A stretch of DNA of 64,000 nt from Escherichia phage JS98. Below, in pieces: positions 4,344 through 47,078 of the stretch (position 1 is the stretch's first letter; every line of letters starts with the position of its first letter). The stretch is from sequence record NC_010105.1; one strand, 5' to 3'. The translations under genes and the position numbers were made by a program. The notes under the pieces were generated by a model, which saw only the letters and a program-made list of their open reading frames with translations, was not told the DNA's origin and searched no databases.

Positions 4344-4607
4344 TTATTTCATATTATTGAAATAATCTTCTGCATTAAAATCGTTATCATGGTAAACTTT
4401 GGTAGACGTTTTGGCGTAGCCTTCAGCTGAGAACATATTAATCACAACTTTAATTGTATACCACTGTCCATCTTCGTTACCCATTACTGCATAGGTTTCA
4501 TACACTGGGTGTTCAGGACCGATAACCTTAATATCGTTAACAGTAGCACCAAATTCTTCAGGAACGCATTTCATAAAGAAATTAAACAATTCACCATAAT
4601 TATCCAT
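4344..4607 (-). CDS. hypothetical early protein (87 aa)
   Basis: Start moved to ATG 4607 (AAGGAGAG SD), behind early promoter 4642-4669. Confidence 0.55.
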   Translation of the reverse strand: MDNYGELFNFFMKCVPEEFGATVNDIKVIGPEHPVYETYAVMGNEDGQWYTIKVVINMFSAEGYAKTSTKVYHDNDFNAEDYFNNMK

Positions 4608-4641
4608 TTTACTCTCCTTCACACTGTTGTTTTGATAGGTC

Positions 4642-4669
4642 TATAGTATCATGTTTAAAGGAGGTGTAA
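4642..4669 (-). promoter_or_regulatory. T4-type early promoter (cassette family TACTATAGxCCTATCAAAACA)
   Basis: Minus strand GTTTACA-16 nt-TACTAT, plus a conserved initial transcribed region. Confidence 0.65.
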
Positions 4670-4706
4670 ACAACTTTGTGAAATTATTTTTAGTTTAAAC
4701 CCCCTA

Positions 4707-4728
4707 AAAGGAGACCAAAGTCTCCTTT
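4707..4728 (-). terminator. rho-independent terminator
   Basis: AAAGGAGAC-loop-GTCTCCTTT, followed on the minus strand by TAGGGGGTTT. Lies 3 nt after the stop at 4731. Confidence 0.6.
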
Positions 4729-4730
4729 CA

Positions 4731-5348
4731 TTATTTACGGGTCTTTTCGAACTGTGCTGCGTCACCTGCAAGGCGGCGGGCTTGACGAAGTTTGTTATCA
4801 ATTTCTTCGTGCATAGGCTGGGTATACTTAAGGCCTTCAACCGTCAGGTAAAGACGATAGAGGTCCGGGGTATCTAGGTTGTTAATGTGCTGCCCATTAC
4901 GAAGGGCGTTGAATTCTCGAACGAGTTGTTTAGTTTCGGATTCGATTTCAGAAACCAAAGAAGCCAGCTGGTTATATTTTTTAACAATAGTGCTGGTGTC
5001 GAACTTGATTTTAGGTTTAGGAGCTTCTTTTACAGGCTCTGCTTTAGGTGTAGGTTTCGGCGCTGCAACTTTGGTCTGAGCCGCGGGTTTAGAAACAGGA
5101 GCTTTAGCTGGTTTAGCAGGCTTAGTAGAGCCACCGGCTACGATATCTTTAAAAGCTTTGGAAGCTTTGTAATATTCTTTCTGGCTACTAGTATCAAAAC
5201 CATACATATCATAAACGTTTTTAAAGAACTCGGTAGTGGTTTTAGTCCCGGAAATTTTATCATAAGCAGCTTGCCACATATCTTTAGTCATGCGCACGCC
5301 GGCTTCATTCAGAACGCTTTCGTTCAAAAATTCATTGTAAGTTTTCAT
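4731..5348 (-). CDS. internal head protein-like (IPIII-like) with capsid-targeting leader
   Basis: N-terminus MKTYNEFLNE matches the T4 IP leader MKTYQEFIAE, including the L-x-E prohead-protease site. Lys/Pro/Ala-rich basic core. TATAAATA late promoter upstream. Confidence 0.7.
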   Translation of the reverse strand: MKTYNEFLNESVLNEAGVRMTKDMWQAAYDKISGTKTTTEFFKNVYDMYGFDTSSQKEYYKASKAFKDIVAGGSTKPAKPAKAPVSKPAAQTKVAAPKPTPKAEPVKEAPKPKIKFDTSTIVKKYNQLASLVSEIESETKQLVREFNALRNGQHINNLDTPDLYRLYLTVEGLKYTQPMHEEIDNKLRQARRLAGDAAQFEKTRK

Positions 5349-5366
5349 TATTGTTTCCTGTGTTAA

Positions 5367-5374
5367 TTAACTTA
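5367..5374 (-). promoter_or_regulatory. late promoter TATAAATA
   Basis: Exact TATAAATA 19 nt upstream of the ATG at 5348. Part of the repeated cassette. Confidence 0.7.
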
Positions 5375-5380
5375 TCTATT

Positions 5381-5402
5381 TATACAAAAAGGCCCAACCT
5401 TT
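5381..5402 (-). terminator. rho-independent terminator (repeat cassette copy 1)
   Basis: GGCCC..CCTT-loop-AAGG..GGGCC, then TTTTTG on the minus strand. Confidence 0.65.
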
Positions 5403-5417
5403 CGGAAGGGCCGTAAA

Positions 5418-5972
5418 TCAGTTCTTGTAGAACCGGAACGGGTTCACGTGGAAGGCCAACATAGCTTTAGGGATTTTACGAGACAAAAGACTCTTAAGCT
5501 TCCAGCCACAGTACACGCGAAGGTAAAATGTGATTCCGCCGACCTTAAGATAAGGAACTGAAGCAAATACACCCCAGGCGTCATCATTCCACATCCACAA
5601 CCAACCATGGTGAGCTTTATCAGGAGAACCTGATTCTACGTCAGGATTACCACGATAATGGAATTCCGAGCTACAATCACGGCCTAGTTTATGATAAGCA
5701 AAGTTATAAGCTTTATTTCGCCATAGCCAAGCTACTCTCTGGAGATAAACACCACCAGGCATTTTCCTGATTTTAGCCCAACGTTTAATATGACCTTTAT
5801 CGCCGTCAATTGGATTATCGTATGTCATCATCCAATCAAAACCGTATGGCAATTTACCAGTCTTTTTATTATGAAAAGGAACCACAAAAGGCGCAAGGAT
5901 AACGGCTAGAACCATAGAGATAAAATCTAGTGGGACCAACAGAATCCAACTCAAATATTTTAAAAGTTTCAT
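5418..5972 (-). CDS. N-terminally membrane-anchored Trp-rich protein of unknown function (184 aa), late-expressed
   Basis: ORF track. TM segment LSWILLVPLDFISMVLAVILAPFVVPF. Own TATAAATA promoter. Flanked by repeated terminator cassettes. Confidence 0.65.
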   Translation of the reverse strand: MKLLKYLSWILLVPLDFISMVLAVILAPFVVPFHNKKTGKLPYGFDWMMTYDNPIDGDKGHIKRWAKIRKMPGGVYLQRVAWLWRNKAYNFAYHKLGRDCSSEFHYRGNPDVESGSPDKAHHGWLWMWNDDAWGVFASVPYLKVGGITFYLRVYCGWKLKSLLSRKIPKAMLAFHVNPFRFYKN

Positions 5973-41800: not shown

Positions 41801-41830
41801 ATGGGAGACTTCGGTCTCCCATTCTTGTTT
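41801..41830 (+). terminator. rho-independent terminator after gene 23
   Basis: ATGGGAGAC-TTCG-GTCTCCCAT, then TCTTGTTTC. Confidence 0.75.
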
Positions 41831-41835
41831 CTATA

Positions 41836-42102
41836 CTATGCAATCTTAACACGACGGTTGATGATATCACGGAAGTCAATACGATTTTCTTGGATTTTCA
41901 GCCAGTTACCAGATTTGTCTTTGGTATGGGTAGAGTATTCACCGTTCCACCAGAAGTCGGTAGCATAAGCCATGGCTTCGTATTTCTTAACTAGTGCATT
42001 CACTGCATTACCGTTAGGATTGGAACCATATTTTTCTACCAGGGCTTTGATGTCTTTATCAAGAGCGGAAAGAGTAGTACGAATAAAGTTTAACTTGTTC
42101 AT
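41836..42102 (-). CDS. hypothetical early protein (88 aa) inserted antisense between 23 and 24
   Basis: Start set to ATG 42102 (GAGGAGATTAAAA leader), behind early promoter 42132-42160. Occupies the T4 segD position but has no endonuclease motifs. Confidence 0.55.
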   Translation of the reverse strand: MNKLNFIRTTLSALDKDIKALVEKYGSNPNGNAVNALVKKYEAMAYATDFWWNGEYSTHTKDKSGNWLKIQENRIDFRDIINRRVKIA

Positions 42103-42131
42103 TTTTAATCTCCTCATGTTTTGATAGGTCT

Positions 42132-42160
42132 ATAGTAACATGTGATAACCTTGCTGTAAA
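42132..42160 (-). promoter_or_regulatory. T4-type early promoter (same cassette family)
   Basis: Minus strand GTTTACA-17 nt-TACTAT, then AGACCTATCAAAACATGAGGAG. Confidence 0.65.
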
Positions 42161-42167
42161 CAACTTT

Positions 42168-42175
42168 TATAAATA
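42168..42175 (+). promoter_or_regulatory. late promoter TATAAATA (gene 24)
   Basis: Exact octamer 29 nt upstream of the ATG at 42204. Confidence 0.75.
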
Positions 42176-42203
42176 AACATATACCCTCAATAAGGAAAGC
42201 GCA

Positions 42204-43484
42204 ATGGCAAAGATTAACGAATTACTGCGCGAGTCAACAACTACTTCTAGCAACTCATTGGGTCGCCCTAATCTTGTTGCTTTGACCCGTGCTACAACCA
42301 AATTGATTTACCGTGATATTATTGCTGAACAACGTACTAGCCAGCCTATTGCTGCATTGTATGGTGTCAAATATCTTACTCCTGATAATGAATTTAGCTT
42401 CCAAACTGGTGCCGTTTATGGCGGTGAAGTTGGTTCTAAAGACCGTGAAACTATCCCAGAACTCACAGATAAGGCCCAGGCTATTGCCAAGGGTGAATAT
42501 TTCAAGTATCAGAACATAGTTTATAAGGCTCTTCAAGCAAGCCCACTCGCATCCACTAGCGCTACAGAATTGGCTGAGGCCCTTCAAGAAGGTTTGGTGT
42601 CATTAACATGTCGTCTGGTTCCTGATGCGGCTCACACAGAGAAATTCGAAGCAGGTGATGTTGAAATTAGTAATGCAGTATTCCAGGTTAATAAATGGAA
42701 CGCACCTGTTAAGTCTCGTAAACTTAAAACCGCTTTGACTGTAGAACTAGCCCAAGACATGGAATCCAATGGCTTTGACGCCCCTGCGTTCTTAGAAGAC
42801 CTTTTAGCCACTGTAATGGCTGATGAAATCAATAAAGACGTACTACAATCCTTGATTACCGTATCTAAACGTTACAAAGTAACTGGTGTATCTGATAATG
42901 GTATTATTGATTTGTCCTATAATTCCGCCCCAGAAAGTGCACGTAAATTATATGAAATGGTTTGTGAGATGAATTCTGAAATTCAGAAAACCACTTCTTA
43001 TTCAGGTACGTTTGTTGTCGCATCTAGTCGTGCTGCTGCTATGCTCGCTGGTTCAGGTTGGTTGAAACATAAACCAGAAGATGAAGCTTGGCTCCCAGAA
43101 ACTGCTTACGGTTATTTGATTAATGGATTGCCTGTATTCTGTGATGTTAATAGTCCTTTAGATTATGTTATCGTAGGCGTTAAAGAAGATTACGGCGGTA
43201 ATGAAGTAGTTGGTTCTATTTTCTATGCTCCATATACCGAAGGTCTGGATTTAGACGACCAAGAACATGTTGGTGCGTATAAAGTTATTGTAGACCCTGA
43301 TAGTTTACAACCGGCTATTTCTCTGATGGTTCGTTATGCACTTTCAGCAAACCCATATACCGTTGCTAAAGATGATAAAGAAGCTCGTGTTATAGACGCA
43401 ACTAATATGGATTTAATGGCAGGTCAGAGTAACATGTCTTATCTGCTTGGTGTTAAACTTCCTCCGATTATTTACGAGGCATAA
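42204..43484 (+). CDS. 24: gp24 capsid vertex protein (T4-orthologous copy)
   Basis: MAKINELLRESTTT.SNS.GRPNLVALTRATTKLIY and many further blocks match T4 gp24. Confidence 0.96.
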   Translation: MAKINELLRESTTTSSNSLGRPNLVALTRATTKLIYRDIIAEQRTSQPIAALYGVKYLTPDNEFSFQTGAVYGGEVGSKDRETIPELTDKAQAIAKGEYFKYQNIVYKALQASPLASTSATELAEALQEGLVSLTCRLVPDAAHTEKFEAGDVEISNAVFQVNKWNAPVKSRKLKTALTVELAQDMESNGFDAPAFLEDLLATVMADEINKDVLQSLITVSKRYKVTGVSDNGIIDLSYNSAPESARKLYEMVCEMNSEIQKTTSYSGTFVVASSRAAAMLAGSGWLKHKPEDEAWLPETAYGYLINGLPVFCDVNSPLDYVIVGVKEDYGGNEVVGSIFYAPYTEGLDLDDQEHVGAYKVIVDPDSLQPAISLMVRYALSANPYTVAKDDKEARVIDATNMDLMAGQSNMSYLLGVKLPPIIYEA

Positions 43485-44768
43485 ATGAAAAAGATTAATG
43501 CATTAATACAAGAATCAACTTTGACGGCGGCCAACCAGGTCGCCCGTCCTAATCTTCTTTCATATACCCAGGCAACTAATAAAAGAATTTTTAAAGCCCT
43601 TGTTGCTGAACAAAAAACTACTCAACCTGTTGCAGCATTATATGGTGTCCGTGTTTTAAACCCAGACGATAAAATGACTTATCTCGGCGGAGCCACTTTT
43701 GCAGGCGAAATTGGTATGTTCGAACGTAAAAACATTCCTGAGTTCACCGATAAAGACGAAGCATATGCTGTTGGCGATATGTTCCAATTCGAAAGTGTGG
43801 TTTTCAAGGTATTAGAAGCTTCTCCGTTTGCAGGAACAACTGAAACCGATTTGAGTGAAGTTATTTCAGAAGCTATTGCCGCGGGCCATATTCGTATGAT
43901 GTCTGATGCAGCCTTTACCAATAAATTTGAAAAAGGTCATCCTGAGATTGCTGAAGCAGGGTTCCGTATTGATAAGTGGCAGACTGAAGTTAAATCGCGT
44001 AAACTTAAAACTTCTTTGACTGTGGAACTGGCCCAGGATTTAGAATCCAACGGGTTTAATGCACCGGACTTTATAGACAATATTTTGGCTATTCAAATGG
44101 CTGAAGAAATTAATAAAGACGTATTACAGTCCTTAATTACAGTAAGTTCTCGTTTTAAAGTCCAAGGAGTTTCTGAGAAAGGTGTCTTGAACTTAACAGA
44201 CCCACAATACGATAACGCCCAAGACCGAGCACGTACCTTGTATTACTATATGTGTGAAATGAATTCTGCTGTTCAACGCCAGACTTCGTTTGCAGGTACT
44301 TATGCAGTAGCTTCTTCTCGCTGCGCTGCTATTTTAGCTGCATCCGGTTGGGTTGAGAAAAAAGAAGACCAAGACGAATTAGCTTATGGCGTATTAAAGA
44401 ACGGTCTACCACTTTATGCTGATATGAACAGCCCGTGTGATTATGTTATTGTCGGTGTAAATGCTCAGATGGGTGAAGGGCAGACGGTCGCATCTTTGTA
44501 TTATGCGCCTTATACGGAAGGGCTCGAAGAGGTTGATGATGAAGGTGATACTTCAGTAGGTGAATTCAAGGTTATTGTAGACCCGGATTCATTGCAACCT
44601 ACCATATCTTTATTGGCTCGGTATGCATTGACTGCGAATCCTTATACCGTCGCTAAAGACGACAAAGAAGCTCGTATTATTGATGGTGCGGATATGGACA
44701 AAATGGCTAATCAAAGTCAATTGAGTTCTTATCTTGGTGTAAAACTTCCTCCATTGGATAAAAACTAA
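43485..44768 (+). CDS. gp24 paralog (second, divergent capsid vertex protein)
   Basis: Full-length collinear similarity to the preceding gene (KSRKLKT.LTVELAQD.ESNGF, EINKDVLQSLITVS, KVIVDPDSLQP, ANPYTVAKDDKEAR), with roughly half the positions differing. Confidence 0.9.
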   Translation: MKKINALIQESTLTAANQVARPNLLSYTQATNKRIFKALVAEQKTTQPVAALYGVRVLNPDDKMTYLGGATFAGEIGMFERKNIPEFTDKDEAYAVGDMFQFESVVFKVLEASPFAGTTETDLSEVISEAIAAGHIRMMSDAAFTNKFEKGHPEIAEAGFRIDKWQTEVKSRKLKTSLTVELAQDLESNGFNAPDFIDNILAIQMAEEINKDVLQSLITVSSRFKVQGVSEKGVLNLTDPQYDNAQDRARTLYYYMCEMNSAVQRQTSFAGTYAVASSRCAAILAASGWVEKKEDQDELAYGVLKNGLPLYADMNSPCDYVIVGVNAQMGEGQTVASLYYAPYTEGLEEVDDEGDTSVGEFKVIVDPDSLQPTISLLARYALTANPYTVAKDDKEARIIDGADMDKMANQSQLSSYLGVKLPPLDKN

Positions 44769-44790
44769 AAAGGGACCTTACGGTCCCTTT
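44769..44790. terminator. bidirectional terminator between the 24 paralog and rnlB
   Basis: AAAGGGACC-TTAC-GGTCCCTTT, with T-runs on both strands. Confidence 0.75.
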
Positions 44791-44796
44791 GTCGTC

Positions 44797-45801
44797 TTAT
44801 GACACTAATTCAATCCATACGGCTCGTAAGGTATCTTTTACGCACTCAACGAGCTGCTTTTTAACTTCAACAGGATTTTCGGCATCAGTTAATTCTAATT
44901 CTTCACGGGCAGCTTCTTCAAGGATATCTTGAACTGTCAAGCCCATTACCTTTCCAAAATCCTTTTTAGATACTTCACCAATCTTACTGATGACATTATT
45001 AATGCGGTTAACAGTCACATAATCAGTGAATTGCCACATCAAATCCATATCATCTTGGGATAAAACCACTGCAGCTTTAATAGGCTTATCAGACTTTTTC
45101 TTCTCGCTGAATTTAGAGTTCTTACATTTAATCGCTACACGATTTCCATTAGGAAGCCAGGTAGGAATATCAGGTTTAAGTACAAAGCCTTCAGCCGTGA
45201 ATACTTTACCTTCTACCTTAGGAATAAAGTCTGTCGAGTTTGCAATAGTTAAGCCAGCGTTATCCACCGCAAAATTGTAATCTGGGATAACAGAATCAAA
45301 ATCATTAGGAAGTTTAATAAGGTCTTCAAAGCTACCAGTAGCCAAACATGGAGCTACCTTAAACTTATGGATAATACAGAAGGCTTCCATCAATGTATCG
45401 GTTAGAACAGATTCAGTGCCATCTTCCTTAGTAACTCGGATATCGAACACATAAAAGTCTTTATCACCGTAGTCCACATTCTTCTGGATACCTGGCCCAG
45501 CTAATTCGCCATAAATCTGGTATGACTGGTAATTAATCGATTCAATTAGATGTTGAACAGATTTAATAGAATCAGCGTAGTTCTTGAGTACAATTTCATA
45601 ACCATAGAAATCTTCAGCAGGGAGGATAGGGCCAGTGCGCTTGGCGCATGTGACTGCGTCACGTTCTATGATTAAACTAAAGTTGGTTCCATGAATCTTC
45701 TCACGTGCTACCCATTCACCACCAGTCAAACCGTTAGTACGGAGTTTTTCGATAAACTTACTGTTGTAGTGGTTTTCGAGACTGCTATATTTCTTGAACA
45801 T
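44797..45801 (-). CDS. rnlB: RNA ligase 2
   Basis: [20 protein letters not shown]...[10 protein letters not shown] contains the nucleotidyl-transferase motif I KxHG. 334 aa. Synteny after 24. Confidence 0.92.
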
Positions 45802-46229: not shown

Positions 46230-47078
46230 TTAATAAACGTAATCGTATATAATACCAGCTTCTAAAGCGGTGCGATGAATAATTCGTCCATTACGAGATT
46301 CTTGTACATCAACCTCCGGATAATCGGTAATCATTTTTTGAAGTGTATATCGGTGCAAATAATACGGGCTATCTGGGTCATCAGTTTTCCAGTCTTGTCC
46401 GGCAAGAGTCATTTTCTGAATTTCATCCATAACCCACCAACCACACCAGATATAAGCTGAATTACGTACTGGCAATGGATGAACGTAAGGTAATTCGCCA
46501 TCTGGAACAGGTGCGACTTTAGCTGTGACTGTTACATTACCAGTTTTTGTGACAGTTGCCTGGTTATAATCTGTAGCAGATACAACAACAGAAACTTCAA
46601 TTAACTGGGAACCTTCGGCGCTTGTGTCGATTGCTAAAGTATCCGTGGTGCCAACTACAGGAGAACCGTCTTTCTTCCAAGAATAGGCAAAAGTAGCACC
46701 AGCAGGCGCACCGGCTACAGTAGCTTTAAAAGAAGCCGGAGTTCCTTCAGGAACATTAATTGATTCTGGGGTTAATGTAACAGAAACACCTGACATTGTT
46801 TTATTCTGGATAGTTAAAGTTGTCTCAGCCTCAGCAGTTTCCGGTTCACCGTCTGCCGGAGTGGTAGTTGCAACAACTTTAATAGTCTTACTGCCTGCTG
46901 GACCAACAGCGACATAAGCCATTGCTGCAGTTACAGAAGATTGAGGAACGCCATCAACGGTCCAGACAAATGATTCGGTACCTTCAGCTGCAGCACCGGA
47001 ACCAGTCGCAGTGAAATTGGTTGTTGCTCCAATAACGGCCGTAGCCGCCAAAGGAGCAATATCTACGGTATAAGCCAT
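46230..47078 (-). CDS. hoc: Hoc head outer capsid decoration protein (short form)
   Basis: C-terminal block GELPYVHPLP.R.SAYIWCGWWVMDEIQKMT...YYLHRYTLQKM is nearly identical to T4 Hoc. Ig-like repeats at the N-terminus. Confidence 0.93.
   Translation of the reverse strand: MAYTVDIAPLAATAVIGATTNFTATGSGAAAEGTESFVWTVDGVPQSSVTAAMAYVAVGPAGSKTIKVVATTTPADGEPETAEAETTLTIQNKTMSGVSVTLTPESINVPEGTPASFKATVAGAPAGATFAYSWKKDGSPVVGTTDTLAIDTSAEGSQLIEVSVVVSATDYNQATVTKTGNVTVTAKVAPVPDGELPYVHPLPVRNSAYIWCGWWVMDEIQKMTLAGQDWKTDDPDSPYYLHRYTLQKMITDYPEVDVQESRNGRIIHRTALEAGIIYDYVY

Follow-up and report, generated by a model that had tools for sequence, protein, structure and literature searches.

Escherichia phage JS98 encodes two homologs of gp24, the protein that forms the capsid vertices of phage T4. 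In the 64,000-nucleotide (nt) stretch of its genome analyzed here (sequence record NC_010105.1; hereafter the window), the two genes, 24a and 24b, are intact and adjacent, and each is full-length. Comparison with related phages indicates that 24b is not a spare copy: its conservation has equaled that of 24a from before the split of the genera that carry the pair. We consider it probable (about 0.6) that both genes encode functional vertex proteins and that roles are divided between them.

Our prediction for 24a and 24b comprises cleavage, incorporation into the virion and a position-specific role. Both proteins would be made late and enter the prohead, where the prohead protease (gp21) would trim each of them after Glu10, and both would finish as pentameric vertex subunits. 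24a would keep the ancestral role, and 24b would occupy some of the 11 non-portal vertices or co-assemble with 24a. The conserved fold, protease motif and linkage, the equal constraint on the two copies and the changes in contact elements together suggest a vertex-subunit function for both proteins and, for 24b, a specialized place or partner in the shell.

Two gp24 homologs in the head-gene cluster

The stop codon of 24a (TAA, 43482-43484) is followed directly by the ATG of 24b at 43485, giving the junction TAAATG in both the list of open reading frames (ORFs) and the sequence. The two proteins align over their full length with 56% identity, 76% positives and three short gaps (BLASTP, E = 5e-180). 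Over about 424 residues, 24a is 70.5% identical to T4 gp24 and 24b 55.7%. Both proteins match Pfam family PF07068 (Gp23 family; 327 bits for 24a and 330 for 24b, cut-off 24.4) and PHROG 138, and 24b matches the T4 gp24 chain 1YUE in the Protein Data Bank (PDB) with a phmmer E value of 4e-150. They share the blocks VKSRKLKT[A/S]LTVELAQD, EINKDVLQSLITVS, KVIVDPDSLQP and ANPYTVAKDDKEAR.

A sequence-only reading of this DNA had described two adjacent full-length gp24 homologs joined by TAAATG, the first close to T4 gp24 and the second keeping the fold-defining blocks while differing, by eye, at roughly half of its positions. This description stands: the ORF list, BLASTP and PF07068 agree on the pair, the first copy is the one closer to T4 gp24, all four blocks are found in both copies, and the measured difference is ~44%.

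The genes of the region are ordered g20, g67/68-like, g21, g22, g23, a small minus-strand ORF, 24a, 24b, rnlB, hoc and inh (these three on the minus strand) and uvsW. The pair lies between g23 and the convergent rnlB, and this order agrees with the T4 head-gene cluster. T4 gp24 (PDB codes 1YUE, 5VF3 and 7VS5) is the single penton protein of 11 vertices. It resembles the JS98 proteins in its HK97 fold with an insertion domain, its length of about 427 residues, a propeptide cut after residue 10 (predicted for JS98) and the location of its gene between g23 and rnlB. It differs in that T4 has one gp24 copy, and in that 24b alters the conserved N-arm motif RPNLVALTRA.

Among close relatives, Escherichia phage MN04 (Dhakavirus JS98) is 99.8% identical over 100% of the query (megablast, 42000-45000), and the 24a and 24b proteins of the Dhakavirus IME08 are each 99.06% identical to those of the window. 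The pairs of JS10 and IME08 and of VR5 and VR26 are the same genes as in the window, in the same order g23-24a-24b-rnlB; IME08 differs in carrying a collagen-like ‘tail fiber-like’ gene after 24b and segD before 24a. The pair of S16 and Melville is orthologous but belongs to another genus and host: in S16 (Gelderlandvirus), gp108 matches 24a at 86% identity and gp109 matches 24b at 84%, with the same gene order and a 1-nt overlap.

Age, constraint and origin of the pair

The existence of the pair is already known, having been published for a sister genus and annotated for Dhakavirus. In GenBank, JS10 and IME08 have the labels ‘24a’ and ‘24b’, VR5 and VR26 ‘capsid vertex protein I/II’, and many further records ‘Head vertex protein (x2)’. 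A tandem duplication of the vertex protein has been stated for the Salmonella phages S16 and Melville (PMC6486254), in a one-sentence annotation remark without functional work. This remark and annotation tables (e.g. LQ5) were the only literature on the pair returned by full-text searches. The sequence-only reading had allowed that the duplication might already be well characterized; it has indeed been annotated, and reported in S16 and Melville, but an equivalent function was not found in the literature.

A tblastn search of 50,697 phage records with 24b returned gp24 homologs at 1534 places in 1417 records, giving about 117 records with two places, and a blastn query spanning the junction was covered over at least 80% in 116 records. 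The two-copy phages fall into at least five lineage groups: Dhakavirus, Gelderlandvirus (S16, STML-198, Melville), the Klebsiella phages of Marfavirus (F48, P545, BM7), Enterobacter phage IME523-like, and Erwinia FBB1-like, the last with metagenomic relatives. The tandem duplication proposed from the sequence is thus neither recent nor local, the pair being old and common to at least five groups. The gene order g23-24a-24b was present in all 26 genomic contexts reaching upstream of 24b (the window, L001-L016, L026, L027, L029 and L034-L040; the L033 contig ends within the upstream gene), with the genes abutting or overlapping by 1-4 nt. None of these 26 had 24b without an upstream 24a. The layout seen in the window recurs in S16, P545, IME08, FBB1-type and other contigs.

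Between the two window genes, the proportion of synonymous differences (pS) is 0.68, near saturation. The lowest pS in any 30-codon window is 0.44 and the longest in-register identical run is 14 nt; these three values rule out a recent duplication or gene conversion. Across 17 two-copy genomes, 24a-24b identity within a genome is constant at 0.53-0.575, the distances among genomes for 24a correlate with those for 24b (r = 0.82), and mean ortholog identity is 0.74 for 24a and 0.78 for 24b. Sequence comparison places the split between 24a and 24b before the divergence of the two-copy genera.

Purifying selection is strong on 24a and equally strong on 24b. We calculated the ratio of nonsynonymous to synonymous substitution rates (dN/dS) by the Nei-Gojobori method, taking pairwise values from pairs with dS below about 1.5 (dS is saturated in deeper pairs) and pooling 12 close pairs. 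Pairwise dN/dS was 0.02-0.10 for both genes, and the pooled whole-gene value was 0.056 for 24a and 0.057 for 24b. By domain, the pooled values for 24a and 24b were 0.135 and 0.089 in the insertion domain, 0.028 and 0.051 in the N-arm and E-loop, 0.042 and 0.039 in the A-domain, and 0.026 and 0.034 in the P-domain. Mean distances to far outgroups are nearly equal (24a 0.970, 24b 0.977), so 24b is not a fast-evolving copy. Decay of one copy, with dN/dS near 1, had been named as an outcome that would speak against a functional pair; the pooled 24b value is 0.057. A decaying or fast-evolving second copy is ruled out by the dN/dS values, the outgroup distances and the ortholog identities (0.78 for 24b versus 0.74 for 24a).

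We placed the two copies in a neighbor-joining tree, not a maximum-likelihood one, of 145 gp24 sequences (Kimura distances, 419 columns, 100 bootstraps), rooted on Krischvirus, Aeromonas and Slopekvirus sequences. The 24a proteins from the Dhakavirus/Gelderlandvirus/Marfavirus group cluster in one clade (bootstrap 100), whose sister is the single-copy gp24 clade of T4, CC31, Merlin, PEi20 and PM2 (bootstrap 98), and the FBB1-like 24a-type copies branch immediately outside the main 24a clade (bootstrap 98). 24b is monophyletic (bootstrap 100), with two branches, the FBB1-type and the remainder. The 24b clade joins deep in the tree, weakly, beside the single-copy gp24 of Jiaodavirus and Tegunavirus (bootstrap 26); the deep nodes have bootstraps of 20-27. 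As judged from this tree, 24a is the T4-type ortholog, of the ancestral type, and 24b the derived paralog.

In two metagenomic contigs (L036, 2724-5278; L037, 58-2603), a 24b-type gene adjoins a 24a-type gene from otherwise single-copy clades. In the pairs P0013 with P0049 and P0015 with P0080, the 24a-types P0049 and P0080 group with T4/CC31-like and PM2-like clades. The occurrence of 24b beside 24a-types of single-copy clades suggests that its patchy distribution involves loss and/or exchange. Within Dhakavirus, the window and IME281 (L002) have a dS of 0.228 in 24a and 0.025 in 24b, an inequality that points to a recombination breakpoint near the junction. Identity to the window is 90% in 24a and 95% in 24b for L004, and 95.5% in 24a and 90% in 24b for L007.

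24b could also have been captured from a divergent T4-like phage, as a xenolog, and later moved between lineages by recombination. We hold this origin to be a plausible minority view. Its deep branching near Jiaodavirus and Tegunavirus gp24, away from 24a, is in line with capture, as are the two-copy genomes not being monophyletic on the 24a tree and the reassortment of 24a and 24b alleles within Dhakavirus. With deep bootstraps of only 20-27, however, a basal duplication in place followed by repeated losses fits equally well, and Jiaodavirus and Tegunavirus gp24 retain the ancestral LVALTRA motif. The guanine-plus-cytosine (G+C) content of 24a (0.408) and 24b (0.409) is alike and genome-like (window 0.397), and this comparison gave no compositional sign of a recent foreign origin.

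Fold, paralog-specific sites and expression signals

The AlphaFold model of 24b is of medium confidence (predicted local distance difference test, pLDDT, 75.3; predicted template modeling score, pTM, 0.72). Its best PDB matches are gp24 chains (5vf3_a, 1yue and 7vrt; template modeling (TM) score 0.75-0.85), with gp23 chains at about 0.55. The model suggests for 24b an HK97-type fold that includes an insertion domain and resembles gp24 more than gp23, and the 70.5% identity of 24a to T4 gp24 likewise predicts a gp24-like fold. The domain limits in Table 1 are what we take to be the standard HK97 elements, assigned to the secondary structure of the 24b model from general knowledge of the fold.

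Raw identity between 24a and 24b is 0.42 in the insertion domain (59-158), 0.25 in the loop 346-361 and 0.72-0.76 in the P-domain. The low values in the insertion domain and loop are not paralog-specific, because single-copy gp24 is also most variable there. We defined fixed-difference sites as those at least 90% conserved within each paralog and differing between the paralogs. There are 33 such sites, 18 derived in 24b and 9 in 24a relative to the single-copy consensus. Among them, in 24a numbering, are V25L, A26S, T32N, L34R, Y36F, K56R, Y57V, T68G and N163D. The N-arm and E-loop carry a disproportionate number of the 33 (12 of 67 sites, versus 21 of 365 elsewhere; Fisher p = 0.0018). The peak of divergence that the sequence-only reading placed in the insertion domain is correct for raw identity, whereas the fixed differences between the paralogs are densest in the N-arm and E-loop. 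In HK97-fold shells, these two elements lock a subunit to its neighbors.

The clearest of these changes lies in the N-arm, where 24a and most single-copy gp24 have the motif RPNLVALTRA and nearly every 24b has RPxLLS[YF]T[QK]A. The window proteins carry RPNLVALTRA (24a) and RPNLLSYTQA (24b). The insertion domain is more conserved among 24b orthologs (identity 0.65) than among those of 24a (0.57).

Both proteins retain a candidate prohead-protease site, MAKINELLRE/STT in 24a and ..ALIQE/STL in 24b (the slash marks the predicted cut), and residues 8-11 keep the pattern (L/I)xE-S in 29 of 29 24b-type sequences. Conservation of the propeptide is 0.61 in 24b and 0.86 in 24a. In T4 gp24, cleavage by the prohead protease at the corresponding position removes the first 10 residues (PMC9958956).

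The T4-type late-promoter consensus upstream of 24a (Table 1) is the sole plus-strand occurrence of TATAAATA from g23 to rnlB in an exact-motif scan. Its likeness to the known T4 consensus suggests that it functions as a promoter. The same scan found no TATAAATA within 24a and thus no internal late promoter for 24b. 24a and 24b are probably transcribed together, late, with 24b predicted to be translated from its own site. RNA structure that would mask this site and impose strict translational coupling was not found (junction z = +1.4), and since the junction RNA is unstructured, the 24b Shine-Dalgarno sequence should be accessible. Ribosomes finishing 24a possibly help the translation of 24b. 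The hairpin that follows 24b (-17.8 kcal/mol, z = -4.1, with 0 of 200 shuffles as stable) has a good T-run on the minus strand and a weak one on the plus strand, and is a probable two-way terminator.

Table 1 Features of the 24a-24b pair, domains of the 24b model, and collagen-repeat genes following 24b in other phages and contigs.
Feature	Sequence	Position	Strand	Description
24a	window	42204..43484	+	ATG start, 426 residues; predicted ancestral-type capsid vertex protein, T4 gp24 ortholog
24b	window	43485..44768	+	ATG start, 427 residues; predicted derived vertex-protein paralog
Late-promoter consensus TATAAATA, T4-type	window	42168..42175	+	29 nt upstream of 24a start; exact-motif scan
Shine-Dalgarno-like AAGGA	window	42192..42196	+	7 nt before 24a ATG; sequence reading
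Shine-Dalgarno GAGG	window	43476..43479	+	within 24a 3′ end, 5 nt before 24b ATG; sequence reading
G+C-rich hairpin	window	44769..44790	.	between convergent 24b and rnlB; terminator scan
Propeptide	24b model	residues 1-10
N-arm	24b model	residues 11-48
E-loop strands	24b model	residues 49-58, 159-177
Insertion domain	24b model	residues 59-158
Spine helix	24b model	residues 193-220
A-domain	24b model	residues about 224-345
C-terminal P-domain sheets	24b model	residues 362-420
Collagen-repeat gene	L029 (IME08)	4491-5678
Collagen-repeat gene	L033	2676-3674
Collagen-repeat gene	L034	4890-5930
Collagen-repeat gene	L035	5345-6403
Collagen-repeat gene	L039	4326-5339		by position and size only
Collagen-repeat gene	L040	2634-3638		by position and size only

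A further terminator-like hairpin, ATGGGAGACTTCGGTCTCCCAT with a T-rich tail (41801-41822, plus strand), lies directly past g23, which suggests that the late promoter at 42168 may be the main source of 24a and 24b transcription, rather than read-through from g23. The small ORF between g23 and 24a (41836-42117, minus strand) encodes 93 amino acids and matches PHROG 6003 (E = 5e-50). At its place T4 has the homing endonuclease gene segD, and IME08 carries both the ORF and segD. The Hoc homolog of the window (46230-47078, minus strand) has 282 residues, compared with 376 in T4, and presumably contains fewer immunoglobulin-like domains than T4 Hoc.

In IME08 and FBB1-type contigs, a collagen-repeat gene, annotated ‘tail fiber-like’, directly follows 24b on the same strand (Table 1). 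The collagen-repeat genes of IME08, L033, L034 and L035 have a common core of ~105 residues (BLAST, ~53% identity, E ~1e-28). In L033 and L034, the C-terminus of the next protein matches the C-terminal part of the window Hoc (E = 6e-15), and genes of similar size stand after the collagen-repeat gene in L035, L039 and L040. The window itself has no collagen-repeat gene after 24b. This gene could be a head fiber or decoration module linked to 24b.

Candidate roles of the second vertex protein

The prolate head, the geometry of which has been described (PMC3012670), would offer non-equivalent classes of vertex, one distal apex and ten ring vertices. Five-fold symmetry speaks against regular mixed pentamers and favors separate homopentamers at different vertices. 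The older duplication that gave gp24 from gp23, in which a capsid gene was copied beside its parent and kept for a specialized lattice position (PMC9958956), is the natural precedent for a second round of specialization. The likeness has its limits: gp23 and gp24 are only about 20% identical and have proven roles, whereas 24a and 24b are 56% identical.

Several points weigh against divided roles. A symmetric pentamer of two subunits is impossible, which makes the co-assembly variant structurally awkward. About 92% of gp24-bearing phage records have a single copy, and 24b is patchy even among close relatives of 24a, so that a T4-type head does not in general need 24b. The excess of fixed differences seen in the N-arm and E-loop depends on domain limits from a pLDDT 75 model and general knowledge of the HK97 fold. 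Direct evidence of either protein in a virion was not found in the full-text literature or the PDB, and full-text searches without the JS98 and S16 primary papers located no proteomics, knock-outs or structure for any two-copy phage. The sole gp24 structures returned by PDB searches are those of T4 gp24, and a mass-spectrometry table for the ValerieMcCarty phages covers single-copy Jiaodaviruses.

A stricter form of the proposal is a head with three shell proteins, in which 24b homopentamers occupy a distinct class of vertex (e.g. the distal apex or one ring set) and 24a the others. We give this specific arrangement a rather low probability. If true, such a head would represent a second round of the specialization that led from gp23 to gp24, and 24b may then anchor extra head-associated proteins in some lineages.

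It is doubtful that the two proteins simply do the same job, forming random homopentamers at any vertex, with the second gene serving supply or robustness. The two are alike in fold, length, protease motif and transcription unit, as this explanation expects, and single-copy relatives show that one gp24 suffices. Identical function, however, predicts relaxed constraint, loss or homogenization. The copies stay 53-57% identical with no conversion tracts in the 17 genomes, dN/dS is near 0.06 in both, nearly every 24b has RPxLLS[YF]T[QK]A in place of the conserved RPNLVALTRA, and 24b is never the sole copy in the contexts examined. The supply of vertex protein is also unlikely to be limiting when ~55 subunits per head suffice.

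We find it improbable that 24b acts as an assembly factor in the prohead, in vertex nucleation or gp21 triggering, and is absent from or minor in the mature head. In T4, attachment of gp24 to the prohead vertices is thought to trigger activation of the protease (PMC9958956), and this link between gp24 binding and gp21 lends the explanation some support, as do the dependence of 24b on the presence of 24a and the much lower conservation of its propeptide (0.61 versus 0.86). Yet the HK97 body, insertion domain and P-domain blocks of 24b are conserved as in a shell subunit, its surface domains are more conserved than those of 24a, it shows no domain loss or gain, and such a role has no precedent.

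Still less probable is an alternative surface, decoy or defense-evasion function through a different exposed vertex face, which the sequence-only reading had suggested. Raw divergence between 24a and 24b is indeed greatest in the exposed insertion domain (0.42) and the loop 346-361 (0.25), and the patchy distribution resembles that of an accessory gene. A gene in an arms race should diversify, but 24b orthologs vary less in the exposed insertion domain than do those of 24a (identity 0.65 versus 0.57), with a lower dN/dS (0.089 versus 0.135) and no sign of diversifying selection, and the paralog-specific fixed changes lie in buried contact elements. We know of no defense system that senses gp24. 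A duplicate that is degenerating into a pseudogene, or that arose as an artefact of assembly, has in its favor only the prior expectation that compact phage genomes lose extra copies. Selection and distribution refute it: every genome examined has an intact reading frame, the tandem junction occurs in 116 independent phage records as well as metagenome contigs, and dN/dS is near 0.06.

Divided roles for two functional vertex proteins, in keeping with the mixed or specialized vertices that the sequence-only reading had suggested, thus remain our preferred reading, and they bear on a puzzle: a virus that needs only 55 vertex subunits retains two constrained versions of the protein for as long as the genera have existed. 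If the paralogs sit at different vertices, they would be a natural case of step-wise specialization of a capsid lattice after duplication, comparable with the gp23 to gp24 step inferred for T4. Such an arrangement would also be relevant to T4-type display platforms and to those phages of the group, JS98 and S16 among them, that were isolated for, or suggested for, use in phage therapy and biocontrol. To the known pair our analysis adds the residues that tell 24a from 24b, and with them a clean, testable case of capsid-protein subfunctionalization.

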